A stretch of 64,000 nucleotides of DNA from Firmicutes bacterium UBA4845 (GTDB taxonomy: Bacteria > Bacillota > Clostridia > Tissierellales > Sedimentibacteraceae): the NCBI GenBank assembly GCA_002399975.1, contig DHER01000114.1, positions 999 to 64,998 of the forward strand, written 5' to 3'. The position numbers and the translations under genes are program-made. Under the pieces are notes generated by a model. The model saw only the letters and a list, made by a program, of their open reading frames with translations. It was not told the DNA's origin and made no database searches. Below are positions 7,369 through 27,228 of this stretch, one piece after another. Within the stretch, counting starts at the first letter, position 1. Every line of letters starts with the position of its first letter.

Positions 7369-7384
7369 GATGCAATAATGCATC
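7369..7384. promoter_or_regulatory. putative upstream activator sequence (UAS)
   Basis: Palindrome GATGCA-ATAA-TGCATC about 65 bp upstream of a -24/-12 promoter; motif recurs upstream of the other island promoters. Confidence 0.55.
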
Positions 7385-7446
7385 TTATAAATGATAAGCA
7401 ATAGTATATTAAAATAATTTCTATTGAAATTTCAACATTGTATAAC

Positions 7447-7462
7447 TGGCATAATTATTGCT
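7447..7462 (+). promoter_or_regulatory. sigma54 -24/-12 promoter of abfD
   Basis: TGGCATAATTATTGCT, exact GG-N10-GC. Confidence 0.85.
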
Positions 7463-7497
7463 ACATACATAGAAGAACTATTTGGGAGGATAATATA

Positions 7498-8949
7498 ATG
7501 ACTTTAAAAACCGGTGAACAGTATATAGAAAGTATAAGAAATATGAAAATGCAGATTTATATGTTTGGAGAAAGGGTGGAAAGTTCTGTTGACAATCCGA
7601 TACTTTGCCCTTCCTTGAATTCGGTAAAAGCAACCTACGATTTGGCACAGATGCCTGAATACGAAGATCTAATGACGGTTACATCTTCCGTTACGGGAAA
7701 TAAAATTAACAGATTTACTCATATTCATCAGAGCACGGAAGATCTTATAAAGAAAGTAAAAATGCAAAGATTGTTAGGGCAGAAAACTGCTTCCTGCTTT
7801 CAAAGATGTGTAGGTATGGATGCTTTTAATTCTGTATATAGTACAACATATGAAATTGATAAAGCATACAATACACAATATCATAGAAACTTTGTTAATT
7901 ATATGAAATATGTTCAGGAAAATGATTTGACGGTTGATGGGGCAATGACAGATCCTAAAGGGGACAGATCACTGTCACCAGGTAAGCAGTCTGATCCGGA
8001 TTTGTTTTTAAGAGTTGTGGAAAGAAGAACCGATGGAGTAGTGGTGCGTGGTGCTAAAGCTCACCAGACAGGTATTTGTAATTCTCATGAAGTACTGGTA
8101 ATGCCAACAATTGCTTTAACCTTTGAAGACAAAGATTATGCCATTTCATTTTCGGTCCCTGTTGATACAAAAGGAATAATAATGATAATCGGGAGACAGT
8201 CCTGTGATACAAGGAAGCTTGAAAATTCGCCTATAGATGTTGGAAATTCAAAATATGGAGGGGTTGAAGCATTAACCATATTTGACAATGTATTTGTACC
8301 AAATGAAAGGATTTTTCTAAACGGAGAAACTGATTTTTCCGGAATGATGGTTGAAAGATTTGCAGGATACCACAGGCAAAGCTATGGAGGATGCAAAGTG
8401 GGAGTTGGAGACGTGCTTATTGGTGCAGCGGCATTAGCATCAGAATATAATGGGGTTCAAAAAGCATCACATATAAAAGATAAGCTGATTGAAATGACTC
8501 ACTTGAATGAGACACTGTATAGCTGCGGTATAGCATGTTCTGCAGAGGGTCATAAGACTGAATCGGGTAACTATATTATAGATTTGTTATTAGCGAATGT
8601 TTGCAAGCAAAATGTAACAAGGTTTCCTTATGAAATAGCAAGGATAGCCGAAGATATTGCGGGAGGACTAATGGTAACGGCCCCTTCCGAAAAAGATATG
8701 AGAGATCCGGTTTTGAGTGAATATATCAATAAGTATCTCCGGGGTGTTGACGGTGTTTCTGTAGAGAATAGGATAAGAATATTAAGACTAATAGAGAATT
8801 TGACTTTAGGTACTGCTGCGGTTGGATACAGAACTGAATCCATGCATGGAGCAGGTTCACCCCAGGCACAGAGAATAATGATAGCCAGGCAGGGAAACAT
8901 AAATGGTAAAAAAGAGCTTGCAAAATCAATAGCACGAATAAATGATTAG
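7498..8949 (+). CDS. abfD: 4-hydroxybutyryl-CoA dehydratase / vinylacetyl-CoA isomerase
   Basis: [4Fe-4S] ligands in CFQRCVGMD and HRQSYGGCK; AMTDPKGDRS; ESMHGAGSPQAQR; ATG 7498 after GGGAGG. Confidence 0.88.
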   Translation: MTLKTGEQYIESIRNMKMQIYMFGERVESSVDNPILCPSLNSVKATYDLAQMPEYEDLMTVTSSVTGNKINRFTHIHQSTEDLIKKVKMQRLLGQKTASCFQRCVGMDAFNSVYSTTYEIDKAYNTQYHRNFVNYMKYVQENDLTVDGAMTDPKGDRSLSPGKQSDPDLFLRVVERRTDGVVVRGAKAHQTGICNSHEVLVMPTIALTFEDKDYAISFSVPVDTKGIIMIIGRQSCDTRKLENSPIDVGNSKYGGVEALTIFDNVFVPNERIFLNGETDFSGMMVERFAGYHRQSYGGCKVGVGDVLIGAAALASEYNGVQKASHIKDKLIEMTHLNETLYSCGIACSAEGHKTESGNYIIDLLLANVCKQNVTRFPYEIARIAEDIAGGLMVTAPSEKDMRDPVLSEYINKYLRGVDGVSVENRIRILRLIENLTLGTAAVGYRTESMHGAGSPQAQRIMIARQGNINGKKELAKSIARIND

Positions 8950-9146
8950 TTAAAATAAAATATTTTCCCGGCATTCCCAAAGAAAGTTCCGGGAAATTTT
9001 TTAGTGTAATTTTTAGAACTGCATTGAGAATTTTGAAACATTGATGTGACATTTAAGAGATTCATGCTTTAAAATTTGTTTTTTAAAATGTAAAATATGA
9101 TATAATATTATATGTTAAAAACTTATCATGCGTGAAGGAGGATTAG

Positions 9147-10877
9147 GTGGATATCAAAAAATTAATCATTAAAGACGCCAAATTAAAAGAGTTTATTTTG
9201 AAAAATCCAAACGGAATTATTGCAACGGATTCTAATAATCAAATCATTTATATTAATCAGGAAGCTGAAAATCTGCTTGGCCTGAAGAAAAAAGATATTA
9301 TGAATAATGACATTTTTTGCGTAATCCCTGATTTCAGAAATATCAAGTTCAATTGTGGAAAAGTGTATCTTATTGATGAAAACGATTTGACATACGATAT
9401 AATACCTATTCAGCTATATAACGAAAATGAAGAATCTATAAATATTTATATTATTATTGAAATTGATGAGATAAATAAATTGGAATCAGAACTTAAACAC
9501 CAGAAAACAATTATAAATGAACTTAATGAGATTTTGGAAGGCTCATATGACGGTATTCTTGTTACTGACGGAGATGGTAAGGTTCTATTAGTTAACACCT
9601 CTTATGAGAGAGTAGCTGCAATAAAGAAGGAGGATATGTGGGGAAAAACCATGCGAGATTTAATGAATCCTGTATGGATGCCAAATTCAGTTGCTTATGT
9701 TGTTATTGAGCAAAAACAGGCAGTTTCAAAACGGCAGGTTACTAAAGACGGGAGGCATATTATTGTTACAGGAATGCCTGTTTTTGATAAGAAAGGCGAA
9801 GTTAAAAAAGTAGTGATTAATGCAAGAGACATCAGCGAAATATATGAGCTTCGTGAAGAATTATTAAGAGAAAAACAGATTAATCGTACATATTTGGAGA
9901 ATTATAAGGAGTTTATTGAAAAAAAGAAAAATAATAGCGAGTGTATTTTAGCTGTTAGTAAACCTATGCAGGATGTTTTGGCATTGGCTCAAAGAATTGC
10001 AAATTTTGAGGCTACAGTTCTAATATTGGGAGAGTCAGGTGTAGGGAAAGAGGTTGTCGCAGATTATATACATAAAGAGAGCTTAAGGCGGGACAAGCCT
10101 TTTATTATTAACTGTGGGGCAATTCCGGAAAATCTGTTAGAGTCAGAGCTTTTTGGATATGAAAAAGGTGCCTTCACCGGAGCTAACCAGTCCGGCAAAG
10201 AGGGGTTATTAGAAGCTGCAAACGGCGGAACTGCTTTCTTGGATGAAGTAGGTGAATTAACATTGGATTTGCAGGTTAAACTGTTGAGATTTTTGGAAAC
10301 TAGAGAAATTAGAAGAGTGGGTTCCGTAGATGGCAAGATTGTGGATGTAAGAGTTATTGCTGCTACTAACCGTGATTTGGATGATATGGTTGAAGAGGGA
10401 ACTTTTAGAGAGGATTTGTTTTACAGGTTAAATATTGTAAGAATCAATGTTTCTCCGTTAAGAAAAAGAATTGACGATATAGCACCTCTAAGTATGATGT
10501 TTTTATATCAATTTAATAAGAAATATAACCAGAATAAGGAGCTGACTATAGATGTAATTAAAGAATTAGAAAAATATAATTGGCCGGGTAATATAAGAGA
10601 ACTAAAAAATGCAATCGAAAATATGGTTATTGTGAGTAACAATGAATATTTGCAGACGGAAGATATTCCATGGAATAAAGAAAAAAACTCTGGTAGAAAA
10701 ATAGTAAGTATGATAAACAATACAGAAGATCTGACCTTAATGGAAGCAACTGAATTATTAGAAAAAACCATGCTGGAAAAAGCAAAGCTTAAATATCAGA
10801 CAACACGAGCAATTGGAGAAAATTTAGGGATTGACCAATCTACAGTTGTACGTAAAATAAAAAAGTATAATTTATAG
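9147..10877 (+). CDS. sigma54-dependent enhancer-binding protein (PAS-PAS-AAA+-HTH)
   Basis: [39 protein letters not shown]-terminal HTH. Confidence 0.92.
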
Positions 10878-10918
10878 CCTGGATTTTATACCAGGTTTTT
10901 AATAAGTTATGGATGTTT

Positions 10919-10953
10919 GATGCAATAGAGCATAAGTAATTAATAATGCATCA
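10919..10953. promoter_or_regulatory. putative UAS (full site plus half site)
   Basis: GATGCAATAGAGCATA, 12 nt, TGCATCA. Confidence 0.5.
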
Positions 10954-11105
10954 TTTATTTTTAATAAATTTCATGGGAACAAAATATAAAACAGCAGGAT
11001 TGTATCAGCTTTATTGTTATTTTTTTAATACGTTTGATGATTGCATGTGCATTTTAACAGTATTATTAGGTAGAGATTAGATTTTATTTATAAAACTTAT
11101 ATAGC

Positions 11106-11121
11106 TGGAACGAAAATTGCA
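11106..11121 (+). promoter_or_regulatory. sigma54 -24/-12 promoter
   Basis: TGGAACGAAAATTGCA, exact GG-N10-GC. Confidence 0.8.
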
Positions 11122-11162
11122 ATAAATATACATACATATAAATTATATATGGAGGAATAGAA

Positions 11163-12398
11163 ATGCCAATACTTACAGAATCGGCAAAAGACATTGCAAT
11201 ACCGGAAATGTTTCCAGTAATGCAGCTTTTCCCCGACGTTAAGATTAAAGATGTTTACAGTACCGCCAAAGCTGAAATAAAGAAAAAGCAATTAAATAAT
11301 TTAATCAGACCCGGTAAAAGTGTTGCAGTTCTCGTAGGTAGCAGAGGTATAGCCAGCCTTAAATACGTTGTGAAAGCAGTTATAGAAATGCTCATTAATA
11401 TGGGAGTTAAGCCTTTTATAGTACCTGCTATGGGAAGTCATGGAGGGGGAGTTGCTAAAGAGCAAAAAAAAATCATTGAAAGCTATGGCATAACAGAGGA
11501 ATATTTGGGCATACCTATCTGTTCATCTATGGAGACAACAATTATAGGAGAAACTGCCGATAAAATTCCGATTCATATTGATAAGTTTGCGGATAGAGCA
11601 GACTATATAGTACCAGTTGTGAGAATAAAGGCACATACCGACTTCAGCGGTCCAATTGAAAGCGGACTATGTAAAATGCTTTCAATTGGAATAGGAAAAC
11701 ATAACGGGTGTTCAAGACTGCATCAAGAAGGTTTTTCCAACTTCAGCAAATTAATTCCCAATGCTGCATCTGTAGTATTAAATAAAAAAAATGTCCCTTT
11801 TGGCGTTGCAATAATTGAAAATGCCCATGAGAACGTACATACAATTTGTGCCGTTCCCGGAAGTGATATTTTAAGTAAAGAACCGTCTTTGCTTTCTTTG
11901 AGCAAATCACTTATGCCAAGGTTATATTTTGACCATATTGATGTTCTTATCGTTGAACAAATAGGTAAGGACATTACGGGAGCCGGCATGGATCCCAATA
12001 TTACAGGGCGCACCACCAGCGGATCTGTACAAAACTTCTCAGGTCCTTCAATCAGTCGTATAGTTGTACTGGACTTAACTGAAAAAACGCACAATAATGC
12101 TGTTGGAGTAGGAAATGCTGACTTTATAACAAAAAAACTGTACGATAAAATCGATCTGATTTCAACTTATTCCAATGCCATTGCATCTGGAAATCCAGGT
12201 TCCGCAAATATCCCTGTAGTATTGGACAGTGAACGTGAAGCAGTTCTGGCGGCAATACAAACATGCCCTGGAATTGATCATAATAATGCAAAAATAGTTA
12301 AGATAAAGGATACACTTCATCTTGTAAACATTGAGATATCTGAAAACTTACTTCCATATTGCCGTTCAAGAAAAAATTTCTATGTACCCGAGCATTAG
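11163..12398 (+). CDS. LarA-superfamily (lactate racemase N-terminal/DUF2088-like) protein
   Basis: GSRGIA, PAMGSHGG, KAHTDF..ESGLCKM and KHNGCSRLH align by eye with the LarA His/His/Lys/His residues. Confidence 0.7.
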   Translation: MPILTESAKDIAIPEMFPVMQLFPDVKIKDVYSTAKAEIKKKQLNNLIRPGKSVAVLVGSRGIASLKYVVKAVIEMLINMGVKPFIVPAMGSHGGGVAKEQKKIIESYGITEEYLGIPICSSMETTIIGETADKIPIHIDKFADRADYIVPVVRIKAHTDFSGPIESGLCKMLSIGIGKHNGCSRLHQEGFSNFSKLIPNAASVVLNKKNVPFGVAIIENAHENVHTICAVPGSDILSKEPSLLSLSKSLMPRLYFDHIDVLIVEQIGKDITGAGMDPNITGRTTSGSVQNFSGPSISRIVVLDLTEKTHNNAVGVGNADFITKKLYDKIDLISTYSNAIASGNPGSANIPVVLDSEREAVLAAIQTCPGIDHNNAKIVKIKDTLHLVNIEISENLLPYCRSRKNFYVPEH

Positions 12399-12423
12399 AC
12401 TTTATATTTTTAAGCCTATAAAA

Positions 12424-12468
12424 AAATAAGCGTCCCGGACGTAAGTGTTACGTCTGGAATGCTTATTT
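12424..12468. terminator. bidirectional terminator between convergent units
   Basis: AAATAAGCGTCCCGGACGTAA-GTG-TTACGTCTGGAATGCTTATTT long hairpin. Confidence 0.75.
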
Positions 12469-12492
12469 ATAAATTTGCCGCTCTTAATTACT

Positions 12493-12900
12493 TTACAGCT
12501 TTTCATATACCGATATATACATGCGGAAAAAGAAAAAACCGAAAATACATCCTAACGCAAATATGGATATTAGTCCTGCTGCAACCGAAACAAAAAGACT
12601 TGGCGAAATATCGTTAACATAAACTATCTTAATTGTAGCAGTCAACCTGCTTGCTAATGCTGCCACACCCCAATAAACAACTGAAACCATAACTAAATTT
12701 TTATTTGCCGCCTTATATCTTATAATAATATCAAATCCAAATCCCAACGCAATGCATATGGCACATGCGAATAATAATTTTAAAGCAAGCCCGTTTCCAA
12801 TTAAATCTTGTATGCCACTTTTCTTAATCATAAATGATAATATTATTAAAGAAATTGTTGAGAAAAATATCATTATTGCAGCGCTTACATGTTTTTTCAA
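12493..12900 (-). CDS. hypothetical ~4-TM membrane protein, downstream of the permease
   Basis: Four hydrophobic stretches; GAGGAGG SD; same orientation as the permease, 74 bp gap. Confidence 0.6.
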   Translation of the reverse strand: MKKHVSAAIMIFFSTISLIILSFMIKKSGIQDLIGNGLALKLLFACAICIALGFGFDIIIRYKAANKNLVMVSVVYWGVAALASRLTATIKIVYVNDISPSLFVSVAAGLISIFALGCIFGFFFFRMYISVYEKL

Positions 12901-12974
12901 AAAATGCCCCTCCTCTTACGGTTTAACTTATGTATGATCATTATGGCAGCAGTAATTGTATTCGTGCTGAATGG

Positions 12975-14357
12975 TTAAAATATAATAACTGTATAGTATA
13001 TTGCAAATATGATGAAGAAAATTATACCCAGTATATTAAAAATTATGCTTCCCTTTGACGGTTTAAATGTATCAGGCAATACTTTCAAATTTAGAATAAG
13101 TACTACAATAGCCAATATAGGGAGATTATACGCTCCATCAATAATGGATTGAGCCTGAAGTAAGACCAAAGGCTGAAATTTCATTAAAGAGAAAAACAAT
13201 GAAATCAGACTTTGTACGGTAAACACTATTACCCAGATTCTGTACCCTTTTTTATCGTCAATATTTTTCATACGTTTTGGTGCAAGGATTCTACTCGCAT
13301 CATTCCAGACTCTAACCGTACCGTCTTCAAATGTCAAATATGCTGCAAACATTACCTCGGCCGCTGCTATAATATATATCCATTCACCAAGTGGACCAAC
13401 TAACTCCACAACTATTTGTGCCTGGACTAGAACCAGATCCATCCCGGACGGAGCAAGTCCTCTCGGTCTAAGTACTGCATACCCGCATAGGAAAAAACAA
13501 ATACATACTATAAATGTTAGTACTGTCCCAACTCCTAAATCGATCTTTAAAAGCTTAAGCCAGTTTCTGCCTTTTCTTATTTCATCAGGTGTATCGTCGC
13601 AGGTTACCGACATTATATTATCATATTCATCTTTCCTTTTATTATTTAAACTTAATCCATATCCTTTTTCCCTTATCCAGTAACTGTACCAAATTGTGCC
13701 TATACATCCGGCTCCTACAAAACCCGTAAGAGACATCATATCCGTCCATCCCTGTGTATCGGAAGGAAGTCTTGGAATAACCATATTTGAAAGTAATTCA
13801 GCGTATCCGCTTAACGGAGTAAAGGCTATTGCAGAGATCATTACACACAAAGTCATTGTGCAGGTTCCTAATGTGCATATTTTTTCAAGTATGCTGTATT
13901 TACCGAAATATAGCAACGAAGAAACAAAAATTGTAATAATCACCGTAATAACAGCTAAATTTCCACCGAATACATAGCTAACCAGGGTAGCTCCAGATAC
14001 TGTATATGAAGATATTGTTACTGTTTGCCATGTAATCGGCAAAAATGCAAACCAAAATACTAAAAATTTCGATAATTTGGATACGCCTCCCAAGATTGTC
14101 TGACCGGTAAAAATAGTATATCTGCCTACTTCATAATTAATAAAAAACTTGATAAAAATAAGAAAAAGTATCATCCACGCAAACGTTAACCCGTGTACTG
14201 CTGAATTTCTTGTTGTAAGTATTAATTCTCCTGTACCTATTGCAGCTGCAGACCATACCAAACCAGGTCCGACTTTTTTCAGCAATTCTTTTGTGTTATT
14301 AGTAATATCTGGCATAATCTCTGTTTGGATTTCTTGTAATTCTGCATTTTTTGCCAT
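12975..14357 (-). CDS. NRAMP-like (YcsG-type) secondary transporter
   Basis: GPGLVWSAAAIGTGEL..HG..FAW N-terminal motif; about 11 TM segments; lacks the DPGN metal motif. Confidence 0.7.
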   Translation of the reverse strand: MAKNAELQEIQTEIMPDITNNTKELLKKVGPGLVWSAAAIGTGELILTTRNSAVHGLTFAWMILFLIFIKFFINYEVGRYTIFTGQTILGGVSKLSKFLVFWFAFLPITWQTVTISSYTVSGATLVSYVFGGNLAVITVIITIFVSSLLYFGKYSILEKICTLGTCTMTLCVMISAIAFTPLSGYAELLSNMVIPRLPSDTQGWTDMMSLTGFVGAGCIGTIWYSYWIREKGYGLSLNNKRKDEYDNIMSVTCDDTPDEIRKGRNWLKLLKIDLGVGTVLTFIVCICFFLCGYAVLRPRGLAPSGMDLVLVQAQIVVELVGPLGEWIYIIAAAEVMFAAYLTFEDGTVRVWNDASRILAPKRMKNIDDKKGYRIWVIVFTVQSLISLFFSLMKFQPLVLLQAQSIIDGAYNLPILAIVVLILNLKVLPDTFKPSKGSIIFNILGIIFFIIFAIYYTVIIF

Positions 14358-14464: not shown

Positions 14465-14480
14465 TGCAATTATCATGCCA
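14465..14480 (-). promoter_or_regulatory. sigma54 -24/-12 promoter of the permease
   Basis: Minus strand TGGCATGATAATTGCA. Confidence 0.85.
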
Positions 14481-14619: not shown

Positions 14620-14654
14620 GATGCGTTTTTGCATGTATACTTAATCTCGCATCA
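14620..14654. promoter_or_regulatory. putative UAS shared by divergent sigma54 promoters
   Basis: GATGCGTTTTTGCATG, 12 nt, CGCATCA; same spacing as at 10919. Confidence 0.5.
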
Positions 14655-14911: not shown

Positions 14912-14927
14912 TGGCATAACGATTGCA
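14912..14927 (+). promoter_or_regulatory. sigma54 -24/-12 promoter of the SDR gene
   Basis: TGGCATAACGATTGCA. Confidence 0.85.
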
Positions 14928-14977: not shown

Positions 14978-15736
14978 TTGAAAAATTTGTTTGATATTAA
15001 AGGTAAAAAAGCCATAGTAACGGGAGGCAGCAGAGGACTTGGCAGAGGTATGGCACAAGGACTTCATGATGCTGGCGTTGAGCTTGTTATTATGGGAACA
15101 ACTAATAGAATATTGAAGATTGCAGAAGGAATAGATTCACCTGATGCACCTGTGCATGGTGTGATAGCAGATTTCAATAATTCTTTTGAAGTTGAAAAAG
15201 CATTTGATGAAGCAATGAGTATTTTAGGGGATTTAGATATTTTGGTAAATAATGCCGGAATGCAAATACGCCATCCTTCCTCTGAATTTCCGCTGAAAGA
15301 CTGGCAGAATGTTTTGAATGTTAATTTAACTTCGGCATTTATAATGAGCCAGAAAGCAGGAAATGTAATGATGAAAAAAAGGTATGGAAAAATTATAAAC
15401 ATTGCTTCGTTATTGAGTTTTTCCGGAGGCATTAATGTACCTGCATATGCTGCAAGCAAGGGAGGCATAGCACAATTGACAAAGGCATTATCCAACGAGT
15501 GGGCAGCTAAATGCATCAATGTAAATGCCATAGCTCCCGGATATATGGATACTGATAATATTGCAGATATAAAAACAGATGATATCAGAAACGCTCAAAT
15601 TTTAGATCGTATACCGGCAGGAAGATATGGAACACCGGAAGACATGATTGGGACAGTCATATTTTTAGCTTCACATGCCTCAGATTACATTCATGGGTCT
15701 GTATTACTGGTTGACGGTGGCTGGATGGGCAGATAA
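14978..15736 (+). CDS. SDR oxidoreductase, KduD/gluconate 5-dehydrogenase-like
   Basis: TGGSRGLG, NNAG, YAASKGG, NAIAPGYMDT; KduD-like LTKALSNEWA and VDGGWMGR end. Confidence 0.85.
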   Translation: MKNLFDIKGKKAIVTGGSRGLGRGMAQGLHDAGVELVIMGTTNRILKIAEGIDSPDAPVHGVIADFNNSFEVEKAFDEAMSILGDLDILVNNAGMQIRHPSSEFPLKDWQNVLNVNLTSAFIMSQKAGNVMMKKRYGKIINIASLLSFSGGINVPAYAASKGGIAQLTKALSNEWAAKCINVNAIAPGYMDTDNIADIKTDDIRNAQILDRIPAGRYGTPEDMIGTVIFLASHASDYIHGSVLLVDGGWMGR

Positions 15737-18089: not shown

Positions 18090-18105
18090 CACGGAGGGTA
18101 GAAGA

Positions 18106-19293: not shown

Positions 19294-19728
19294 ATGTTTT
19301 ATTTAAATAGGGAACAAATTAAAGAAATAATTCCTCACCGAGATCCAATGCTTCTAATTGACGAGGTTTTGGAAATGATACCGGAAAAAAGTATTAAAGC
19401 AAGATTTTTTGTTAATTCAGACAGAGAAATTTTCAAAGGCCATTTTCCAGGACAGCCTGTATTCCCAGGAGTTTATACGGTGGAGTGTATGGCACAGGCA
19501 TCGGATATTCTGCTGTTATCCATAGATAGATACAAAGGTACCATTCCATTATTTATTGGAATAAATAATGTTAAATTTCTGAGTAAAATAAATCCTGGTG
19601 ACACCATTGAAATAAATTCGAAAATTATCGTGGAACGAATGAATAAAGGTATAGTAACATGTTGTGCAGAAGTTTTTAACAGCGGAGAACCGGCTGCTAC
19701 TGGAGAAGTAACATTGGCAATGCGTTAG
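19294..19728 (+). CDS. FabZ-family hot-dog (R)-3-hydroxyacyl-thioester dehydratase
   Basis: IPHRDPMLLID, FKGHFPGQPVFPGV..ECMAQ. Confidence 0.85.
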   Translation: MFYLNREQIKEIIPHRDPMLLIDEVLEMIPEKSIKARFFVNSDREIFKGHFPGQPVFPGVYTVECMAQASDILLLSIDRYKGTIPLFIGINNVKFLSKINPGDTIEINSKIIVERMNKGIVTCCAEVFNSGEPAATGEVTLAMR

Positions 19729-19754
19729 ATTATAATATTTTGAGGGAATCAGAT

Positions 19755-20525
19755 ATGAGTGAACAAATTTTTATGAAAATCATTGATCAAATTGCAACAA
19801 TCAGCATAAACAGATCTGAAGTCTTAAATGCTTTATCAAAGGAAATCATTGATGAAATGGACGAAATGATTGAAAGCATAAAAAACAACAAGGATATCAG
19901 AGTACTTGTTTTCTACAGTAAAGACAATTTTGCAGCAGGAGCAGATATTAAGGCAATGGCTAAATGCAATTCTAAGCAGGCGAAAGAATTTGTTTTTACA
20001 CAGACCTACAACAAGATATATGATTTGTCTATTCCAACAATTGCTGCTATTGATGGATACGCATTTGGAGGAGGACTGGAGCTTGCTTTAACATGTGATT
20101 TCAGAATATCCAGCAAAAATTCTAAAATGGGTCTGACCGAACTGAATCTTGGAATTATGCCGGGGGCCGGAGGTACTGTAAGGTTAGCAAGAATAATAGG
20201 CGAGTCAAAAGCCAAAGAAATGATTTTTCTGAGCAAGATTGTAGATGGTGAAGAGGCGGAAAAAATAGGACTTGTCAATGCTGCAGTTGAAAAAGAAGAA
20301 TTGTATTCAACTGCATTAAGATGGGGTGAAAAATTAAAACGAAAAAGCAGTATATCTCTTGCATATGCAAAAAAATCAATAGAAAACGGAATTTGTGATA
20401 CGGATATTCATTCTTCCACCAATATGGAATCAGAAATTTGGGCGTCATTGTTTGACACATATGATCAGAAGGAAGGAATGAATGCCTTTATAGAAAAGAG
20501 GAAGCCAAAATTTTTAGGTAAGTAA
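19755..20525 (+). CDS. enoyl-CoA hydratase (crotonase family)
   Basis: FAAGADI oxyanion loop; both catalytic Glu present (GGGLEL, GLTELNLG). Confidence 0.88.
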   Translation: MSEQIFMKIIDQIATISINRSEVLNALSKEIIDEMDEMIESIKNNKDIRVLVFYSKDNFAAGADIKAMAKCNSKQAKEFVFTQTYNKIYDLSIPTIAAIDGYAFGGGLELALTCDFRISSKNSKMGLTELNLGIMPGAGGTVRLARIIGESKAKEMIFLSKIVDGEEAEKIGLVNAAVEKEELYSTALRWGEKLKRKSSISLAYAKKSIENGICDTDIHSSTNMESEIWASLFDTYDQKEGMNAFIEKRKPKFLGK

Positions 20526-20551: not shown

Positions 20552-21759
20552 TTGAAAAATTGTGTTATAACAAGTGCAGCCAGGACAGCTGTAGGAAAAT
20601 ATCTGGGAAGTTTAAAAACAGTAGAAGCACAGGACTTGGGAAGTGCAGTTTTAAAGGAAGCTGCCAAAAGATCAAATATAGCATTAGATCAAGTTGACCA
20701 GGTTGTTATGGGTGACGTGTATGGCTATACACCTAATGTTTCAAGATGTGCGGCACTAATTGCCGGTATACCTATAACAACTCCGGCATACACAGTGGAC
20801 AGGCAGTGTGCTTCTTCACTTCAGGCAGTGGTAAGTGCCATATATGAAATAGCTGCCGAAGAGGCGGATGTAATTTTGCCGGAGGAGTAGAAGTTATGTC
20901 AAGGCTGACCTATTACCTGGATCCTTCAGCAAGGTATGAGCCGCTTAAGTTAGGCAATAAGACTCTCCATGATACGTTCACCACTGGAGTTACCCTTGTT
21001 CAGCCGAGATCCTTATACCCCGGATTAAATATGGGCATTACTGCTGAAAATGTTGCAGATAAATATAACATTTCAAGAGAGGAGCAGGACTTGTTTGCCT
21101 TGGACAGCCAGCGTAAGACGAAAGCAGCAATGGATGCCGGAAGATTTAAAGAAGAAATAGTTCCATATGAAGTGAAGCTTAAGAAGAGCAGTTTTATATT
21201 TGATACTGATGAGCATCCCAGACCGGATACAACTATGGAAATACTTAAAAAACTGAAACCTGCATTTAAGGAAGGAGGAACGGTGACAGCAGGCAACTCA
21301 TCTGGAATGAACGATGGAGCCTCTGCAGTTGTTGTTATGTCAGAAGAAAAAGCAATTGAACTCGGTTGTAAGCCTTTAGTCAAAATTATAAGCCATAGCA
21401 GCGTAGGGGTTGACCCGGCTATAATGGGGATAGGCCCGGTACCGGCAATAAAAAAAGCTCTGAAAAAGGCCGGTCTGACTTTGGAAGATATAGATTTGTT
21501 TGAAATAAATGAAGCATTTGCCGCACAGTCATTAGCTGTTCTGAAGGAACTTGGTATGAATATGGGTAGCAGACCTTATGAGAGAGTAAATGTAAATGGA
21601 GGGGCTATTGCACATGGACATGCACTGGCAAACAGCGGAACAAGATTGCTGACAACGCTGATTTACGAGCTAAAAAGAAGAAATGCCCGTTACGGAGTCG
21701 TAAGCCTTTGCATTGGCGGAGGACAGGGAATGGCAATGGTAGTTGAAAACTGCAGGTAG
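20552..21759 (+). pseudogene. acetyl-CoA C-acyltransferase (thiolase) split by a single-base deletion at about 20874-20878
   Basis: ORF 20552-20890 (QCASS) plus ORF 20896-21759 ([16 protein letters not shown]); one extra base restores VI(F/L)AGGVEVMS and a 402-aa thiolase. Confidence 0.85.
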
Positions 21760-21788
21760 AAATATTATAAATTGATTTGGGAGGATAT

Positions 21789-22646
21789 ATGGAAATAAAA
21801 AAAGTTGGTGTTGTTGGCGCCGGAATGATGGGAGCGGAAATTGGTCTTTGTTTTGCAAAATGTGGTTATGAGGTTGTATTAGTTGACAGAACTGTTGAAC
21901 TGGCAGAGAAAGGTAAGGAAAAACAGGCATCTGCTTTAGATAAGAGCATAAAAAAAGGAAAATTTGATGCTGATGAAAGAGAAGGTGTTTTAGGCAGAGT
22001 AACAGCAACATGTGATTATAAAGATTTACATGACTGTGACCTGGTAATTGAGGCTGTTTTTGAATCGTATGATGTTAAGACTGCAACCTACAAGGAGTTA
22101 GAAAAAGTATGTAATCCTGAATGCATAATTGCTTCAAATACATCAAGTATTTCAATTACAAAACTGGCATCAGGAGTAAGCAGAGAAAGAGCAGAAAAAT
22201 TTATAGGTACTCACTTTAATTCGCCTGCAAGCATAATGAAGTTAGTTGAAGTAATCCCGGGACACCTGACCGACGGTGGGGTTACAAACCAAGTTATTGA
22301 TATGCTAAAGCATATTGGAAAAGAGCCTGTTAAAGTGAAAGATGTGACAGGATTTGCATTAAACAGGTTATTCCACGTATTTTCGTCTGAGGCATGTCGT
22401 CTTTTAGAGGAAGGCGTAGCAACGGCAGAGGATATAGATAAGATATGTGTGTATGGGCTTGGGCATCCGGTAGGAATCTTCAGGCTTCTTGATAATATGG
22501 GACATGATTTAAATATTTCCGTAGATAAAATTCTATTTGATGCCTATGGCGAAAGATTCAGACCCAGCCAGGAAATGCAGCGCCTTGTAGATGCCGGGTT
22601 ATATGGCAAAAAATCCGGTGAAGGTTTTTATAAATATGATAAATAA
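21789..22646 (+). CDS. 3-hydroxyacyl-CoA dehydrogenase
   Basis: GAGMMG Rossmann fold, IEAVFE, SNTSSISIT, catalytic His in GTHFNSP, GKKSGEGFY. Confidence 0.9.
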   Translation: MEIKKVGVVGAGMMGAEIGLCFAKCGYEVVLVDRTVELAEKGKEKQASALDKSIKKGKFDADEREGVLGRVTATCDYKDLHDCDLVIEAVFESYDVKTATYKELEKVCNPECIIASNTSSISITKLASGVSRERAEKFIGTHFNSPASIMKLVEVIPGHLTDGGVTNQVIDMLKHIGKEPVKVKDVTGFALNRLFHVFSSEACRLLEEGVATAEDIDKICVYGLGHPVGIFRLLDNMGHDLNISVDKILFDAYGERFRPSQEMQRLVDAGLYGKKSGEGFYKYDK

Positions 22647-22752
22647 ATACTTGAGTAAATTTGTTGCAATACAATTGTTAAAATAAATGCAATTCTGAAT
22701 GGGAGCAATTAATATAAAGTATTTACTTAGTAAAAAGGAAAGGTGGAACAGA

Positions 22753-23976
22753 ATGGAAAATAAGATTACATCGAAGCAGATGCTTGGTGAGTTATTAGAA
22801 AAACATTATAAATCTGCAATCGAAGCAAAAGCTAATGGCAAGATGGTTGCCTGGGCAACATCAATATGTCCGCAGGAATTGCTGGAAACTATGGATATTG
22901 ATGTTGTATATCCTGAAAACCATGCAGCTGCAATTGGCGCAAGAAAATGCGCACCGGAATTTATTGAGCAATCAGAGGGTAAAGGATATTCTTCGGATAT
23001 TTGTTCATATGCAAGGGTAAATATGGGATATGCTGATATTCAGTTCTCCGAAGCAGAAAATATTCCAATGCCGGATCTATTATTTTGCTGCAGCAATATT
23101 TGCAATACCGTAATTAAGTGGTATGAAAATCTTGCTAAAAATTTAGGCATACCATTAATTATGTTTGACATGCCTTTTAACCATACTTATGAAGTTCCTG
23201 AATATAGTGTCAAATATATGAGGTCACAAATAGAGTATGCAATTAAAAAGCTGGAGGAAATTACAGGGAAAAAATTTGATTTTGATAATTTTGCAGAAGT
23301 TATGAAGCTTTCAAATGAAACCTGTGAGTGGTGGAAAAAGGCTACGGATCTTGCAGTAAATATTCCGTCACCTTTAAAAGGATTCGACATGTTTAACTAC
23401 ATGGCGCTGATTGTTTGCATGAGAGGTAAAAAAGAAGGCAAAGAATTATACAAACTTTGGTATGAAGAATTAAAGGAAAAGTCTGAAAAAGGGATTGGGC
23501 CATTTCGCGATCAGGAAGAAAAATACAGAGTAATGTGGGATGGAATTGCCTGTTGGCCAAATTTGTCAGTAACATACAAAACATTGAAAAAATATGGTAT
23601 CAACATGGTTACATCAACATATCCGGAATCATGGAATGTAAGATATGAAACGAATGATTTGGATGGAATGGCAAGAGCATACAGTTCAAATTACGCTAAC
23701 AGAAATCTTGAGTATGATGTACAAAATGTATCAAAACTTGTACGAGATTTTAAGCTTGATGGTATCATTTATCATTCAAACAGAAGCTGTAAGCTTATGG
23801 ACTTCAGGCAATATGAAGTTCAAAGAAGAGTTGAAGAAGAAACAGGAGTTCCATCGGTAATATTTGACGGTGATCAAACCGACCCCAGGATATTTTCTGA
23901 AGCACAGTATGAAACGAGAATACAGGCTCTGGTAGAAATGATGGAAAATAATAAAAAGGCTGGGAGGGATAAATAA
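22753..23976 (+). CDS. 2-hydroxyacyl-CoA dehydratase alpha subunit (HgdA/HadB/LcdA family)
   Basis: YPENHAA, DICSY, CSNIC, HSNRSCK, DGDQTDPR. Confidence 0.88.
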   Translation: MENKITSKQMLGELLEKHYKSAIEAKANGKMVAWATSICPQELLETMDIDVVYPENHAAAIGARKCAPEFIEQSEGKGYSSDICSYARVNMGYADIQFSEAENIPMPDLLFCCSNICNTVIKWYENLAKNLGIPLIMFDMPFNHTYEVPEYSVKYMRSQIEYAIKKLEEITGKKFDFDNFAEVMKLSNETCEWWKKATDLAVNIPSPLKGFDMFNYMALIVCMRGKKEGKELYKLWYEELKEKSEKGIGPFRDQEEKYRVMWDGIACWPNLSVTYKTLKKYGINMVTSTYPESWNVRYETNDLDGMARAYSSNYANRNLEYDVQNVSKLVRDFKLDGIIYHSNRSCKLMDFRQYEVQRRVEEETGVPSVIFDGDQTDPRIFSEAQYETRIQALVEMMENNKKAGRDK

Positions 23977-25106
23977 TGTCAGAACTGAAAACATTAATAA
24001 GCCAGTTAGAGAATATAGCGTTAAATCCGGGCAAATCAGTGGCAAAGTCAGTAAAAGATACCGGTAAGGAACCTATAGGCTGTTTTCCTATTTATACTCC
24101 GGAAGAAATAGTATACGCAGCAGGCTATCTGCCTGTAGGTATGTGGGGCGGAAAAACCGAAATAAAGCAGGCAGACAAGTATCTTCAAAGCTTTTGCTGC
24201 TCAATAATGAGGTCTAATATTGAATATGGCATGAAGGGTACATATGATGGATTAAAAGCTGTAATTATCCCGACATTTTGTGATACTCTGAAATGTGTTT
24301 GTGAAAATTGGAAGACTGCGGTGCCGCAAGTGCCTGTTATTACTGTGGTTTATCCTCAGAACAGATTATTAGACGCAGGATATCAGTACCTGGTAACGGA
24401 ATTTAATAGAATAAAGGATGAAATAGAAAAACTAAAGGGTGAAAAAATTTCTTCAAAAAACATGGAAAAGTCATTTTCCATATATGAAAACTATAGAGAA
24501 GCAATGAGAAGTTTTGTTAAAGTTGTAAAAGATTATCCAATTACTATTAATACAAGGACGAGACATTTGATTATTAAAGCAGCATATTTTATGGATAAAA
24601 AAGATTATACAGACATAATAATTCAAATAGTAAATGAGTTAAAAAATAGTTCGGCAGAAAACTTCAACGGCATAAGAGTGGTGGCAACAGGATTGATAGG
24701 TGAACCGGTTGAGCTGTTGAATATATTTGTTGAAAACAATATAGCTGTTGTTGCAGATGATTTTGCGCAGGAATCACGTCAATTCCGTGTTCAGGCAAGA
24801 AATAAGGGAACTGCAATAGAAAAAATGGCTTACAGGATTGTTGATCAAAAAGGATGTACATTTTTATATGAAGAAGTAAAAACTAAAGGGCAAATGCTTA
24901 TCGATATGGTAAAAGAGAGCAAAGCACAGGCTGTGGTTGTGGTAATGATGAAATTTTGTGATCCGGAGGAATTTGATTATCCTATTATTAAGGAAGAAAT
25001 TGAAAAAGCTGATATACCCATGCTTTATATTGAAACGGATATGCAGATGGATTCCTATGAACAAATCAGAACAAGAGTACAGAGTTTTGCAGAAATGTTA
25101 GGCTAA
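23976..25106 (+). CDS. 2-hydroxyacyl-CoA dehydratase beta subunit (HgdB/HadC/LcdB family)
   Basis: FCCSIMRS, FCDTLK, MKFCDPEEFDYP, EQIRTRVQSF. Confidence 0.88.
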   Translation: MSELKTLISQLENIALNPGKSVAKSVKDTGKEPIGCFPIYTPEEIVYAAGYLPVGMWGGKTEIKQADKYLQSFCCSIMRSNIEYGMKGTYDGLKAVIIPTFCDTLKCVCENWKTAVPQVPVITVVYPQNRLLDAGYQYLVTEFNRIKDEIEKLKGEKISSKNMEKSFSIYENYREAMRSFVKVVKDYPITINTRTRHLIIKAAYFMDKKDYTDIIIQIVNELKNSSAENFNGIRVVATGLIGEPVELLNIFVENNIAVVADDFAQESRQFRVQARNKGTAIEKMAYRIVDQKGCTFLYEEVKTKGQMLIDMVKESKAQAVVVVMMKFCDPEEFDYPIIKEEIEKADIPMLYIETDMQMDSYEQIRTRVQSFAEMLG

Positions 25107-25118
25107 GGGGGACAATAT

Positions 25119-25889
25119 ATGTATTTAGGGATAGACATCGGGTCTTCATCATCTAAAGCAGCATTGATAAATGAGAATAAAGAGTTGGTAGCAACTGACT
25201 TGATAAATATGGGTACGGGAACTAAGGGACCTGATGAGACTATTAGTAATGTTCTCAGACTTGCAAAAATAAGCAGAGAGAATATTGCCTTTACGGTTGC
25301 AACAGGATATGGGCGTGTTACATTTAGTGGTGCAGACAGCCAGATAACCGAAATAAGTTGTCATGCAAAAGGTGTTTCATTTATGATGAAGGGTGTGAGA
25401 ACGATAATCGATATCGGTGGTCAGGATGCCAAGGTTATCAAAGTTGGTAATGATGGTAAGGTAAAAAACTTTGTCATGAATGAAAAATGTGCTGCCGGAA
25501 CAGGAAGATTTTTGGAAGTAATGGCAAGAGTACTGGGATGTAAAATAGATGAATTATCAGATTTGGCTGATAAGTCTACAACAGATATTTCCATAAGCAG
25601 TGTTTGTACGGTATTTGCCGAAAGTGAAGTCATTTCACGCTTAGCTTCAGGAGCTGCCATTGAAGATGTGGCAAGGGGTGCACATCTTTCAATAGCAAAA
25701 AGAATAGTGGGAATGTGCAGCAGAGTCGGCTACGAGCCGGTTATAGCTATGACCGGTGGAGTGGCACTAAATAGTAATATAGTAAAAGTTTTAAGCAATG
25801 AATTGGAAAGCAGTGTTATAACGGCTCCGCACACACAAGCTGCAGGGGCTATTGGAGCAGCGTTGTTTGCATATGAAAAAGGCATATAA
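25119..25889 (+). CDS. ATP-dependent [4Fe-4S] activator of the dehydratase (HgdC/HadI family)
   Basis: GIDIGSSSSK, TGYGR, DIGGQD, MNEKCAAGTGRFLE, SSVCTVFAESE. Confidence 0.92.
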   Translation: MYLGIDIGSSSSKAALINENKELVATDLINMGTGTKGPDETISNVLRLAKISRENIAFTVATGYGRVTFSGADSQITEISCHAKGVSFMMKGVRTIIDIGGQDAKVIKVGNDGKVKNFVMNEKCAAGTGRFLEVMARVLGCKIDELSDLADKSTTDISISSVCTVFAESEVISRLASGAAIEDVARGAHLSIAKRIVGMCSRVGYEPVIAMTGGVALNSNIVKVLSNELESSVITAPHTQAAGAIGAALFAYEKGI

Positions 25890-25923
25890 TAAATAAAAGT
25901 ATATTTTTATTAAGGAGATTAGT

Positions 25924-27228
25924 ATGAATTGGAGACAAATATATAAATCAAGACTGACTACAGCAGAAGAAGCTGTAAAGTCTGTTAGATCTGGAGATGG
26001 AGTAGTTCCTTCACATGCGGCGGCAGAGCCGAAACATCTTATAAATGCGCTGATGGCAAGAAAAGATGAACTAAAAGGAGTAGAAATATGGCAGGGCCTT
26101 AACATTGGAGATGCTCCATACGCAAAACCGGAATGTGCCGGGCATTTTGTAAATGTAAGCTTTTTTCTTGGTAAAAATAACAGAAAGTGTATTCAGAGCG
26201 GGCAGGGAGAATTTGTTCCCATACATTTTTATGCACAGCCCAGGGCAATTCGGGAGAGTTTGGTAAAATGTGACGTTGCAATGATAAGCTGCACACCGCC
26301 TGATGAAAATGGATATGTAAATATGGGAGTTTCCTGTGATCAGACAAGAATAGCAGTTGAAAAGGCCAGGGTTACTATTGCGCAGGTTAATAAAAAAGTT
26401 CCGTATACATGCGGTGATACATTAATTCATGTGTCTGAAATTGATCATTTTGTGGAGTATGATGAAGACTTATATGAAATTTCATTGATTGAAAGTGATC
26501 CGATTTCTGAGAAAATCGGATACAATATTGCAGGTCTTATAAATGATGGTGACACTCTTCAAATGGGACAAGGTAAAATTCCAAATGCAATATTAAAATT
26601 TTTAGCTGATAAAAAGGATCTGGGCATTCATTCTGAGGTTTTTTCGGATAATCTTATTCCTCTTGTGAAATCAGGGGTTGTTAATGGGGCTAAGAAGACT
26701 ATAAATAAAGGGAAAATAGTTGCTACGTTTATCCAGGGAACCAGGGATGTATATGATTTTGTTGACAGGAATAATATGATTTGTCTTAAACCTGTGGATT
26801 ACACTAATGATGTTTCAGTAATAGCTCAAAATGATAATATGGTAGCAATAAATTCGGCTCTTGAAGTTGATTTGATGGGACAGGTAGTTGCGGATTCTAT
26901 TGGATATAAAACATTCAGCGGTGTCGGAGGGCAGCTGGACTTTTTGCGTGGGACTGAACAGTCAAAAAATGGCAGGCCTATAATTGCACTTCCTTCTACA
27001 GCTAAGAATGGAACGATTTCAAGAATAGTAGCTGTTTTAAAACCGGGTACACCTGTAACAACAACAAGACAGGATGTACACTATGTTGTTACCGAATATG
27101 GTGTTGCCAATCTTTTTGGAAAGCCAATAAGAGAAAGAGCGAAACTATTGACCAATATTGCTGCACCTAAGTTCAGGGAGCAATTAGAAAGAGAATTCTT
27201 TAATTATTACAAAAGCATAGGTGAATAA
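25924..27228 (+). CDS. acetyl-CoA hydrolase/transferase family CoA transferase (4-hydroxybutyrate CoA-transferase-like)
   Basis: LQMGQGKIP, GIHSEVF catalytic Glu, SGVGGQLDF, VVTEYG. Confidence 0.88.
   Translation: MNWRQIYKSRLTTAEEAVKSVRSGDGVVPSHAAAEPKHLINALMARKDELKGVEIWQGLNIGDAPYAKPECAGHFVNVSFFLGKNNRKCIQSGQGEFVPIHFYAQPRAIRESLVKCDVAMISCTPPDENGYVNMGVSCDQTRIAVEKARVTIAQVNKKVPYTCGDTLIHVSEIDHFVEYDEDLYEISLIESDPISEKIGYNIAGLINDGDTLQMGQGKIPNAILKFLADKKDLGIHSEVFSDNLIPLVKSGVVNGAKKTINKGKIVATFIQGTRDVYDFVDRNNMICLKPVDYTNDVSVIAQNDNMVAINSALEVDLMGQVVADSIGYKTFSGVGGQLDFLRGTEQSKNGRPIIALPSTAKNGTISRIVAVLKPGTPVTTTRQDVHYVVTEYGVANLFGKPIRERAKLLTNIAAPKFREQLEREFFNYYKSIGE

Follow-up and report, generated by a model that had tools for sequence, protein, structure and literature searches.

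An island of genes at positions 7369 to 27228 of the window (the whole 64,000-nucleotide stretch of contig DHER01000114.1 from Firmicutes bacterium UBA4845 that was analysed here, with a low G+C content of ~35 %) encodes both known types of radical acyl-CoA dehydratase together with a set of butyrate-type enzymes. The two types conventionally mark separate fermentations, those of 4-aminobutyrate or succinate on the one hand and those of glutamate, leucine or lactate on the other. Their presence in what appears to be a single regulon with butyrate enzymes probably marks an undescribed CoA-dependent route for hydroxy or sugar acids that is built from known enzyme families. An earlier note, drawn up from the letters of this DNA, had proposed such a pathway, and the two dehydratases on which it relied were both recovered: the 4-OH enzyme AbfD matched PDB entry 1U8V with 785 bits, and HadB, a subunit of the 2-OH enzyme, matched C. 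difficile HadB (PDB 3O3M) over its full length with 451 bits. The features of the island are as follows (+ and -, strand; no sign, site without assigned strand).

7369-7384: candidate upstream activator site, GATGCAATAATGCATC, palindromic without mismatch, which precedes the -24 element of abfD by 63 bp
7447-7462, +: predicted sigma-54 -24/-12 promoter TGGCATAATTATTGCT for abfD(-ebp), strict pattern
7498-8949, +: abfD, 4-hydroxybutyryl-CoA dehydratase / vinylacetyl-CoA isomerase, Pfam HpaB_N and HpaB
9147-10877, +: ebp, sigma-54 enhancer-binding protein of PAS-PAS-AAA+-HTH (helix-turn-helix) type, with Sigma54_activat AAA+ domain and HTH
10919-10934: palindrome-like upstream site before larA, two mismatches, pattern match
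11106-11121, +: predicted sigma-54 promoter TGGAACGAAAATTGCA of the larA-like gene, TGGAAC-N5-TTGCA, recognised by eye, one mismatch to the strict pattern
11163-12398, +: LarA-family nickel-pincer (NPN) 2-hydroxy-acid or sugar-acid racemase or epimerase, NCBIfam "NPN isomerase group 22" (NF052515), 502 bits against a cut-off of 400
12493-12900, -: small membrane protein 3' of the permease gene, 135 aa, four helices, no family match
12975-14357, -: Nramp-fold permease, 140 bits to the permissive NCBIfam model Nramp_1, no Pfam match
14465-14480, -: predicted sigma-54 promoter TGGCATGATAATTGCA of the permease unit, strict pattern
14620-14635: palindrome-like site between the divergent permease and SDR promoters, two mismatches, pattern match
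14912-14927, +: predicted sigma-54 promoter TGGCATAACGATTGCA of the SDR gene, strict pattern
14978-15736, +: KduD-like short-chain dehydrogenase (SDR), a keto/hydroxy sugar-acid oxidoreductase, TIGR01832 with 301 bits against a cut-off of 339
15875-15890: candidate upstream activator site, a perfect palindrome, GATGCATAAATGCATC, pattern match
16051-16066, +: predicted sigma-54 promoter TGGCATGTTTATTGCT of the 11-gene operon, strict pattern
16137-17276, +: acd, acyl-CoA dehydrogenase (enoyl-CoA reductase), best family match AcrC
17289-18089, +: etfB, best NCBIfam match AcrB
18106-19233, +: etfA, best NCBIfam match AcrA
19294-19728, +: fabZ, FabZ-like hot-dog (R)-3-hydroxyacyl dehydratase
19740-20525, +: crt, crotonase-family enoyl-CoA hydratase, NCBIfam family match
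20552-21759, +: thl, thiolase, split by a -1 frameshift into open reading frames (ORFs) 20552-20890 and 20896-21759
21777-22646, +: hbd, 3-hydroxyacyl-CoA dehydrogenase, NCBIfam family match
22699-23976, +: hadB, 2-hydroxyacyl-CoA dehydratase alpha subunit, NCBIfam HadB
23976-25106, +: hadC, 2-hydroxyacyl-CoA dehydratase beta subunit, NCBIfam HadC
25119-25889, +: hadI, ATP-dependent activator of HadI/HgdC type, TIGR00241 with 267 bits against a cut-off of 125
25924-27228, +: cat, family-I CoA-transferase of the 4-hydroxybutyrate CoA-transferase (AbfT/Cat2) family, 474 bits to 3EH7
27257-27284: hairpin rich in G+C that separates cat from the convergent SDR2 gene, operon end

Profile and structure-database matches located the other enzymes of the earlier inventory, namely Acd/EtfAB, Hbd, the CoA-transferase, the LarA-like protein and the KduD-like SDR, and the two 3-OH (de)hydratases named there were a crotonase and a FabZ-like protein with an intact catalytic His and Glu motif. 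Two entries needed amendment. The thiolase gene exists but its reading frame is interrupted, and the permease is present as a protein of Nramp fold devoid of the DPGN and MPH metal-binding motifs. Several ORF starts had been listed too far upstream; abfD truly starts at 7498 and acd at 16137.

All five units of the island were preceded by a predicted sigma-54 promoter, as the earlier note had stated; four of these promoters matched the strict pattern directly upstream of abfD, permease, SDR and acd genes, and the fifth, before the larA-like gene, deviated from it at a single position. The window contained 7 matches to the strict -24/-12 pattern where 1.3 were expected, a number reached in 0 of 100 shuffles; a further match at 41018 belonged to a separate AcoR-type regulon. 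A palindrome of the form GATGCA-N4-TGCATC was located 60-190 bp upstream of promoters in four out of four promoter-bearing intergenic regions (10 matches against 3.2 expected; 0 of 100 shuffles reached 10). The activator was 57-64 % identical to activators adjoining had clusters and 42-46 % identical to those adjoining canonical abfD loci. All sequence hallmarks of a sigma-54 regulon were present: each unit has a GG-N10-GC promoter in front of it, an upstream site recurs, and the activator combines a Sigma54_activat AAA+ domain with an HTH. Given the five promoters, the common palindrome and the had-type clade of the activator, the five units, abfD included, look like one regulon of the island's activator. 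The island thus appears to form a single sigma-54 regulon whose own PAS-domain activator is predicted to bind GATGCA-N4-TGCATC, and a single activator and operator for all units would imply a single inducer. Promoters and palindrome followed the same logic in Emergencia timonensis, where the TRAP region carries GATGCAAAACTGCATA and the acd region GATGCGTTGACGCATC, so that the presumed co-regulation was borne out at the level of sequence. In E. timonensis and at locus L017, UxaA and TRAP genes adjoined abfD, each with its own sigma-54 promoter. Promoter matches were located upstream of the same units at loci L017 and L001, the latter also displaying a palindrome match with two mismatches.

Conservation was assessed by a genome scan with HadB, which yielded 80 loci at 64-92 % identity onto which the island proteins were then mapped; the 38 loci with a transferase at least 60 % identical were considered the closest. 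HadB homologues altogether exceeded 3000 at E<1e-30. The gene order acd-etfB-etfA-thl-hbd-crt-hadB-hadC-hadI-fabZ-cat was shared by C. aminobutyricum DSM 2634, E. timonensis, Zhenpiania and many metagenome-assembled genomes (MAGs) of Anaerovoracaceae and Oscillospiraceae, and by Anaerovorax odorimutans and Hominibacterium faecale as far as their shorter loci reach. Cultured carriers were C. aminobutyricum DSM 2634, E. timonensis, Sinanaerobacter chloroacetimidivorans and A. odorimutans. Thirty related loci showed linkage of fabZ with hadI and cat, and abfD directly followed hadBCI-fabZ-cat in nine of the 38 closest ones (L017, L021, L028, L043, L047, L049, L051, L053 and L054). The same neighbours thus recurred over the whole identity range of the HadB loci, and the combination passed the conservation check which the earlier note had proposed for it.

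Clustering of the ORFs from the 80 loci uncovered recurrent accessory families: DctPQM TRAP transporters (~30 loci), D-isomer 2-hydroxyacid dehydrogenases (D-2-HADH, 19), UxaA/GarD-family dehydratases (10) and, further, GldA-like and Zn-dependent polyol dehydrogenases and KduD-like SDRs. Among the 38 closest loci, UxaA/GarD was present in 9, D-2-HADH in 14, TRAP in 12, SDR in 13 and GldA-like dehydrogenase in 4. The UxaA/GarD-family dehydratase matched galactarate dehydratase 6U7L with 234 bits. In L001, whose HadB is 92 % identical to that of the window, a 2HADH-uxaA pair was inserted between hbd and hadB, divergent from hadB, with a sigma-54-like site GGCAT-N5-TTGCA. The best PDB relatives of the TRAP binding protein reached only ~180 bits; several of them (4PDD, 4PDH and 4P9K), reported to bind D-erythronate, were kept as a lead only in view of this weak similarity.

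Paralogous and differently arranged had clusters were also observed among the HadB loci. C. aminobutyricum DSM 2634 harbored at least three paralogous hadBCI clusters (L021, L050 and L064; HadB 75 %, 70 % and 66 %) with differing neighbours, and a sigma-54 activator gene was present within the fetched flanks at two of the three. A distinct arrangement, ebp-hadBCI-hbd-crt-thl-cat, with a transferase 38 % identical, was displayed by L030-L035, L040, L044, L045, L060, L062 and L066. Genes for an aminotransferase of class III (GABA-type) and for an Fe-alcohol dehydrogenase often accompanied this arrangement, which possibly serves an omega-amino or omega-hydroxy acid pathway.

Judged by its sequence, the product of 7498-8949 is a bona fide AbfD. 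It was 71 % identical to the crystallised enzyme of C. aminobutyricum (1U8V), and all 13 catalytic or cluster residues that were checked were identical (R90, C99, Q101, C103, M149, T190, E257, H292, Y296, C299, K300, E455 and A460). Of these, C99, C103, C299 and H292 are the [4Fe-4S] ligands and Y296, E257, E455, K300 and T190 the catalytic residues, in 1U8V numbering and according to the mutational literature. At this level of identity, the unchanged active site favours a C4 chain carrying an OH at its end. The protein fell into a 'canonical' clade, which sister genomes (Sedimentibacter saalensis and others) carry in plain ebp-abfD-abfT 4-hydroxybutyrate loci, and its gene seems to have been recruited into the island. 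Had-linked AbfDs of Anaerovoracaceae were 77-82 % identical to the biochemically characterised enzyme. The had operon of C. aminobutyricum encodes a second, diverged AbfD, 66 % identical to 1U8V, the AbfD of the 4-aminobutyrate (GABA) pathway of this organism; such a separate paralogue suggests that the 4-hydroxybutyryl-CoA step is built into the pathway.

A second context combining AbfD and a LarA group-22 protein was present in a Sedimentibacter MAG (L161, 1-14634), in which ebp, abfD, a gene for pyruvate:ferredoxin oxidoreductase, D-2HADH, larA (64 %), dctPQM, thl and hbd were aligned on one strand without hadBCI. This locus prompted consideration of a C5 route, from 5-hydroxy-2-oxopentanoate to 4-hydroxybutyryl-CoA via a 2-oxoacid:ferredoxin oxidoreductase. 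It was dropped as evidence because, with 1901 bits against a cut-off of 911, the L161 enzyme is simply a pyruvate:ferredoxin oxidoreductase of the usual kind.

Two adjacent genes for homologous PF06050 subunits, together with a BcrAD/HgdC-type activase, identified the second radical enzyme as a 2-hydroxyacyl-CoA dehydratase; PF06050 was displayed by all homologues. HadB and HadC stayed well below the equivalog cut-offs for (R)-2-hydroxyisocaproyl-CoA dehydratase (545 against 750 and 487 against 700 bits, respectively), which speaks against a plain 2-hydroxyisocaproyl-CoA enzyme, one of the outcomes that the earlier note had named as refuting its proposal. The CoA-transferase formed a separate clade, with 416 bits to AbfT 3GK7 and ~50 % identity to the transferases of canonical abfD loci. 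Neither a family-III HadA-type transferase nor propionate CoA-transferase (Pct) was found when the ORFs of the 80 HadB loci were sorted into families, and glutaconate CoA-transferase (Gct) and glutaconyl-CoA decarboxylase (Gcd) were lacking both there and in the window. The hydroxyglutarate pathway was rejected on this ground, and the same four absences agree with the view that the island does not encode a described pathway. No ldhA was present in the island.

The remainder of the 11-gene operon is of butyrate type. Acd, EtfB and EtfA scored below the cut-offs of AcrC, AcrB and AcrA in all three cases. The Etf sequences were of clostridial type, with acryloyl-CoA reductase subunits, which are reported to be non-bifurcating, as best family matches; the bifurcating reduction of the earlier note is putative. 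The frameshift of the thiolase gene was located near 20876-20890 (…GTAATTTTGCCGGAGGAGTAG…) and was identical in two independent metagenome assemblies, X1 and X2. In the closest relatives the gene was intact, as a single ORF in L001 (2878-4086) and with both halves matching in the same frame in L003. With a broken thiolase, the organism of the window may end mainly in butyrate.

The LarA-like protein represents a distant branch of its family, since no PDB match was obtained even at E<10 and Pfam Lar_N scored only 31 bits. Residues H93, H158, K171 and H187 were invariant within the family at LarA-like spacing; they presumably correspond to the catalytic histidines, the NPN-tethering lysine and the Ni-binding histidine of LarA. 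The genes larB, larC and larE were absent from the window, and members of group 22 elsewhere were co-located with them. The commonest neighbour of the family was an SDR gene (23 of 84 loci). In Bacteroides, Bacteroidales and Actinomycetota (~40 % identity; L163 7989-11558, L165 6594-11583 and L168 6710-11475), larA was embedded in GntP / LarA / DUF1537 kinase / PdxA2 clusters, with D-threonate kinase as best match of the DUF1537 protein and a PdxA2 of D-threonate-4-phosphate dehydrogenase type. In Bacillaceae and Paenibacillaceae (L180, L183, L187, L189, L195 and L196; ~5500-13900 each) the order was ROK regulator / larA / mannonate-oxidoreductase-like SDR / larE / gluconokinase-like gene / larB / larC, often with uxaC and gnd, and a spirochaete gene adjoined glycerate 2-kinase and enolase. 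These contexts indicate that the family acts on small sugar acids. Other LarA homologues promiscuously racemise 2,4-dihydroxybutyrate and 4-deoxy-tetronates (PMC11770544), which makes such chemistry feasible within the LarA superfamily.

Taken by themselves, the clusters with DUF1537 kinase and PdxA2 suggest that the D-threonate pathway is fed by a tetronate 2-epimerase, NPN-dependent and hitherto undescribed. Those from Bacillaceae and Paenibacillaceae look like a glucuronate-to-gluconate route via mannonate 2-epimerisation.

The permease displayed 'GTGE' in place of DPGN in TM1 and lacked MPH in TM6, and hence did not conform to an Nramp divalent-metal transporter. For want of these motifs a role as nickel importer for the LarA cofactor was found unsupported. 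The protein is presumed to import an organic substrate, which would be unusual for the Nramp fold. Homologues of the permease and of the 135-aa membrane protein were absent from every related locus.

The closest relatives of the island were located in Sedimentibacter-like genomes, with HadB 90-92 % identical in MAGs L001-L003 and AbfD 85 % identical in S. saalensis. The exact sequence of the window was found in fermentation metagenomes, and related sequence in metatranscriptomes of food fermentation and mud. In two fermentation or mud metatranscriptomes, partial coverage by contigs extended to abfD, larA, the genes for activator and permease and most genes of the operon; that for the SDR was detected in one of the two only, and weakly. 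These contigs show only, and qualitatively, that related sequence is transcribed in situ; they do not demonstrate co-regulation. Full-text literature searches on the intermediates, on the enzyme combination and on recent 2-hydroxyacyl-CoA dehydratase work returned no description of such a system. A survey of butyrate pathways and a catalogue of Clostridiales sigma-54 regulons (PMC6615313) were also covered, and a matching regulon was absent from the latter.

Several other features of the window were recorded outside the island. The island is flanked by genes for a CsoR-type metal-sensing repressor (6864-7253) and a YedE-family putative selenium transporter (28809-29909, 525 bits), with no evident link to the regulon. 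A second, separate sigma-54 unit at 38730-47194 comprises an AcoR/DhaR-like activator (38730-40724), the promoter TGGCATATAAATTGCT at 41018 and an operon for acetoin/pyruvate-dehydrogenase-like E1alpha, E1beta, a 333-aa protein without assignment, E2 and E3. Genes at 56830-58818 encode a radical-SAM protein (TIGR03916) and a partner protein (TIGR03915), annotated together as a putative pair for the modification or repair of DNA; a TGGCA-N7-TGCA match at 56934, inside the first of these genes, probably arose by chance.

Gene identities, promoters, the common operator-like site, synteny and the sugar-acid context were computed here, and substrate, order of steps and energetics were inferred from them. 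We tentatively favour, at somewhat short of an even chance, a CoA-thioester fermentation of a small hydroxylated acid, the likeliest being a C4 acid of the sugar-acid or deoxy-sugar-acid kind, e.g. 2,4-dihydroxybutyrate, or erythronate or threonate converted to it. A polyhydroxy acid is favoured because the AbfD active site is unaltered, because the regulon of the relatives includes sugar-acid dehydratase, reductase and transporter genes, and because the NPN epimerase is of sugar-acid type with an SDR partner. The polyhydroxy acid invoked in the earlier note thereby gained support from gene context: UxaA/GarD, D-2-HADH, TRAP and polyol dehydrogenases in the regulon of relatives, and a LarA family that accompanies either D-threonate kinase and PdxA2 or larBCE, a gluconokinase-like kinase and uxaC.

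The substrate would be taken up through the Nramp-fold permease, or by the TRAP transporter in relatives, and its stereoisomers would be funnelled by the LarA-family 2-epimerase, acting on the other epimer, and the KduD-like SDR. The relatives could first convert erythronate or threonate with a UxaA-type enzyme to the 2-keto-3-deoxy acid 4-hydroxy-2-oxobutanoate, which D-2-HADH or SDR would then reduce to (R)-2,4-dihydroxybutyrate. After formation of the CoA ester by the AbfT-family transferase, HadBC primed by HadI would remove the 2-OH in a radical reaction to give a 4-hydroxy-2-enoyl-CoA (4-hydroxycrotonyl-CoA). This would be reduced by Acd/EtfAB to 4-hydroxybutyryl-CoA, or alternatively isomerised by a FabZ-type reaction and then reduced, and AbfD would eliminate the 4-OH, again by radical chemistry, to yield crotonyl-CoA. 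Crotonyl-CoA could be converted to butyryl-CoA or else hydrated, oxidised and cleaved by Crt, Hbd and thiolase to acetyl-CoA; FabZ and Crt together would deal with 3-OH groups of either configuration. This appears to be the most economical scheme, as each enzyme would be used once on a C4 skeleton, and it would be essentially the route sketched in the earlier note. A bolder version is conceivable and is put forward with considerable reserve. Strictly anaerobic, largely asaccharolytic Clostridia may strip every OH from C4 sugar acids or dihydroxybutyrates (possibly from longer acids, iteratively) without phosphorylation, by three regiospecific dehydratases, and convert the resulting crotonyl-CoA to butyrate or acetate and ATP. 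Two ketyl-radical enzymes, HadBCI at C2 and AbfD at C4, would then act on the same carbon skeleton, in a route widespread in gut and fermentation communities that might draw on erythronate and threonate formed when ascorbate and sugars are oxidised.

Several observations weigh against a hydroxylated C4 substrate that meets both radical enzymes. The substrate was read from gene context only, and the contexts of LarA group 22 span C3, C4 and C6 acids, so that chain length is not fixed by them. The nearest characterised relative of HadBC handles a hydrophobic substrate, 2-hydroxyisocaproyl-CoA; for a comparison of HadB with LcdA, HgdA and FldB, PDB offered only HadBC, and the large protein search returned only generic names. 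The AbfD clade is typical of plain 4-hydroxybutyrate loci, and the enzyme could thus be an independent feeder. Oscillibacter loci displayed the had-cat-fabZ core and sugar-acid genes with no abfD within 10 kb. The thiolase of the island is frameshifted. Finally, UxaA, D-2-HADH and TRAP genes were absent from the 64-kb window, so that the point of entry would differ from that of the relatives, at the level of a 2-hydroxy or a 2-oxo acid.

Part of these observations would be accommodated if the island were a hub on crotonyl-CoA, with a butyrate core (Thl, Hbd, Crt, Bcd/Etf), one AbfT-like transferase and separate feeders for 2-hydroxybutyryl-CoA (Had), (R)-3-hydroxybutyryl-CoA (FabZ) and 4-hydroxybutyryl-CoA (AbfD), no molecule ever meeting both radical dehydratases. 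Crotonyl-CoA would be the product of every dehydratase, the related lactyl-CoA dehydratase is established to convert 2-hydroxybutyryl-CoA to crotonyl-CoA, the AbfD is of canonical clade, and many had-cat-fabZ loci have no adjacent abfD. We nevertheless regard such a hub as rather unlikely: the implied single inducer does not suit separate feeders, a hub offers no explanation for a LarA of sugar-acid type, for the polyol dehydrogenases or for the recurrent UxaA-type dehydratase, and the C. aminobutyricum operon holds a dedicated second AbfD in addition to that of the GABA pathway. A longer sugar acid (C5 or C6, e.g. a 3-deoxy-hexonate from 2-keto-3-deoxygluconate) is an unlikely substrate, although KduD-like SDRs and UxaA (altronate dehydratase)-like enzymes normally use C6 acids, group-22 larA of Bacilli adjoins a gluconokinase-like kinase, uxaC and gnd, and the operon conserves thiolase and Hbd. 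Had, Crt/FabZ, Hbd and thiolase would work iteratively, acetyl-CoA being split off, and the C4 remainder (3,4-dihydroxybutyryl- or 4-hydroxybutyryl-CoA) would be finished by FabZ, Acd and AbfD. The dehydrations would outnumber the enzymes or require a promiscuous AbfD, yet its active site shows no change; this genome has a broken thiolase gene, and an aldolase or kinase pointing to hexonate use is absent.

The best family matches of HadB and HadC were C. difficile models, 3O3M was the best structure match, the hosts ferment amino acids and paralogous had clusters with class-III aminotransferase and Fe-alcohol dehydrogenase genes exist. A Stickland-type reductive branch might be read from this, in which a variant of the had operon or of the hydroxyglutarate pathway would serve an amino-acid-derived 2-hydroxy acid (2-hydroxyisocaproate, 2-hydroxybutyrate from threonine or methionine, or 2-hydroxyglutarate) and abfD would be an unrelated passenger for 4-aminobutyrate or 4-hydroxybutyrate. 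It is quite improbable in view of the equivalog scores, the lack of family-III HadA and of an LdhA gene next to the operon in the window, and the absence of Gct/Gcd from all 80 loci; moreover, abfD has the same operator and promoter type as the other units, and nine relatives have it within the operon. Acrylate-type lactate reduction with chain elongation would cast LarA as lactate racemase, Had as lactyl-CoA dehydratase and Acd/Etf as acryloyl-CoA reductase, with Thl/Hbd/Crt leading to butyrate or valerate. The Acr matches, a source in fermentation or pit-mud type metagenomes (a lactate-rich fermentation habitat would suit) and relatives in valerate-forming Oscillibacter are in keeping with it, but the three Acr scores are all below cut-off, Pct is absent, the LarA-like protein is no canonical lactate racemase, and AbfD, UxaA and TRAP find no place, which makes this reading highly improbable. 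A route to 4-hydroxybutyrate that starts from tartrate or malate, with fumaryl-CoA and succinyl-CoA as intermediates, was not adopted; the ten annotated accessory families did not include an aldehyde dehydrogenase, for which no dedicated search was made.

A conserved, co-regulated operon holding both radical dehydratase types would define a new catabolic route, in a cluster found in human-gut genera (Emergencia, Oscillibacter and Hominibacterium) and in food-fermentation consortia. If the proposed route is correct, sugar and hydroxy acids would join the sources of microbial butyrate as a new substrate class, LarA group 22 and a large, so far uncharacterised clade of dehydratases for 2-hydroxyacyl-CoA would both acquire a physiological role, and a nickel-pincer epimerase would be linked to radical Fe-S chemistry in one regulon. 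The enzymes could be of biotechnological use, 2,4-dihydroxybutyrate and 4-hydroxybutyrate being precursors of methionine analogues and 1,4-butanediol.

Five known systems resemble the island in part. The reductive leucine branch of C. difficile (ldhA-hadAIBC-acdB-etfBA) likewise couples HadBC and an ATP-dependent activator to Acd/EtfBA, and its HadBC is the closest characterised homologue. The transferase of the island, however, belongs to family I (AbfT-like) and not to family III, FabZ, Crt, Hbd, Thl and AbfD are additional, HadB and HadC are below the equivalog thresholds, and the context consists of sugar-acid instead of amino-acid genes. The hydroxyglutarate pathway of Acidaminococcus fermentans (HgdH, GctAB, HgdCAB, GcdABCD) also feeds a crotonyl-CoA/butyrate core from a radical 2-hydroxyacyl-CoA dehydratase, and is set apart by its glutaconate CoA-transferase and glutaconyl-CoA decarboxylase, which none of the related loci encodes. 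The acrylate pathway of Anaerotignum propionicum and Megasphaera elsdenii (LarA, Pct, LcdABC, AcrABC) shares the sequence of racemase, CoA-transferase, radical 2-dehydratase and Etf-linked enoyl-CoA reductase, whereas the island has no Pct, a divergent LarA of sugar-acid type, and extra 3-OH and 4-OH dehydratases and beta-oxidation genes. Phosphorylative catabolism of tetronates, reportedly described by Zhang et al. in 2016 for D-threonate, L-threonate and D-erythronate with DUF1537 kinases and PdxA2, concerns the substrate class proposed here, and its clusters harbor homologues of the larA-like gene. There, a kinase and a decarboxylating dehydrogenase lead to dihydroxyacetone phosphate; the island lacks kinase and PdxA2 and would proceed by CoA esters and radical dehydrations to crotonyl-CoA. 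The fermentation of 4-aminobutyrate and 4-hydroxybutyrate by C. aminobutyricum (AbfH, AbfT, AbfD) displays an AbfD with identical active site, a transferase of the AbfT family and dismutation of crotonyl-CoA by Bcd/Etf, Crt, Hbd and Thl. Compared with it, the island is without a 4-hydroxybutyrate dehydrogenase or aminotransferase, employs a transferase of a separate clade, and adds a 2-hydroxyacyl-CoA dehydratase, a LarA-like enzyme and an SDR under one predicted operator.

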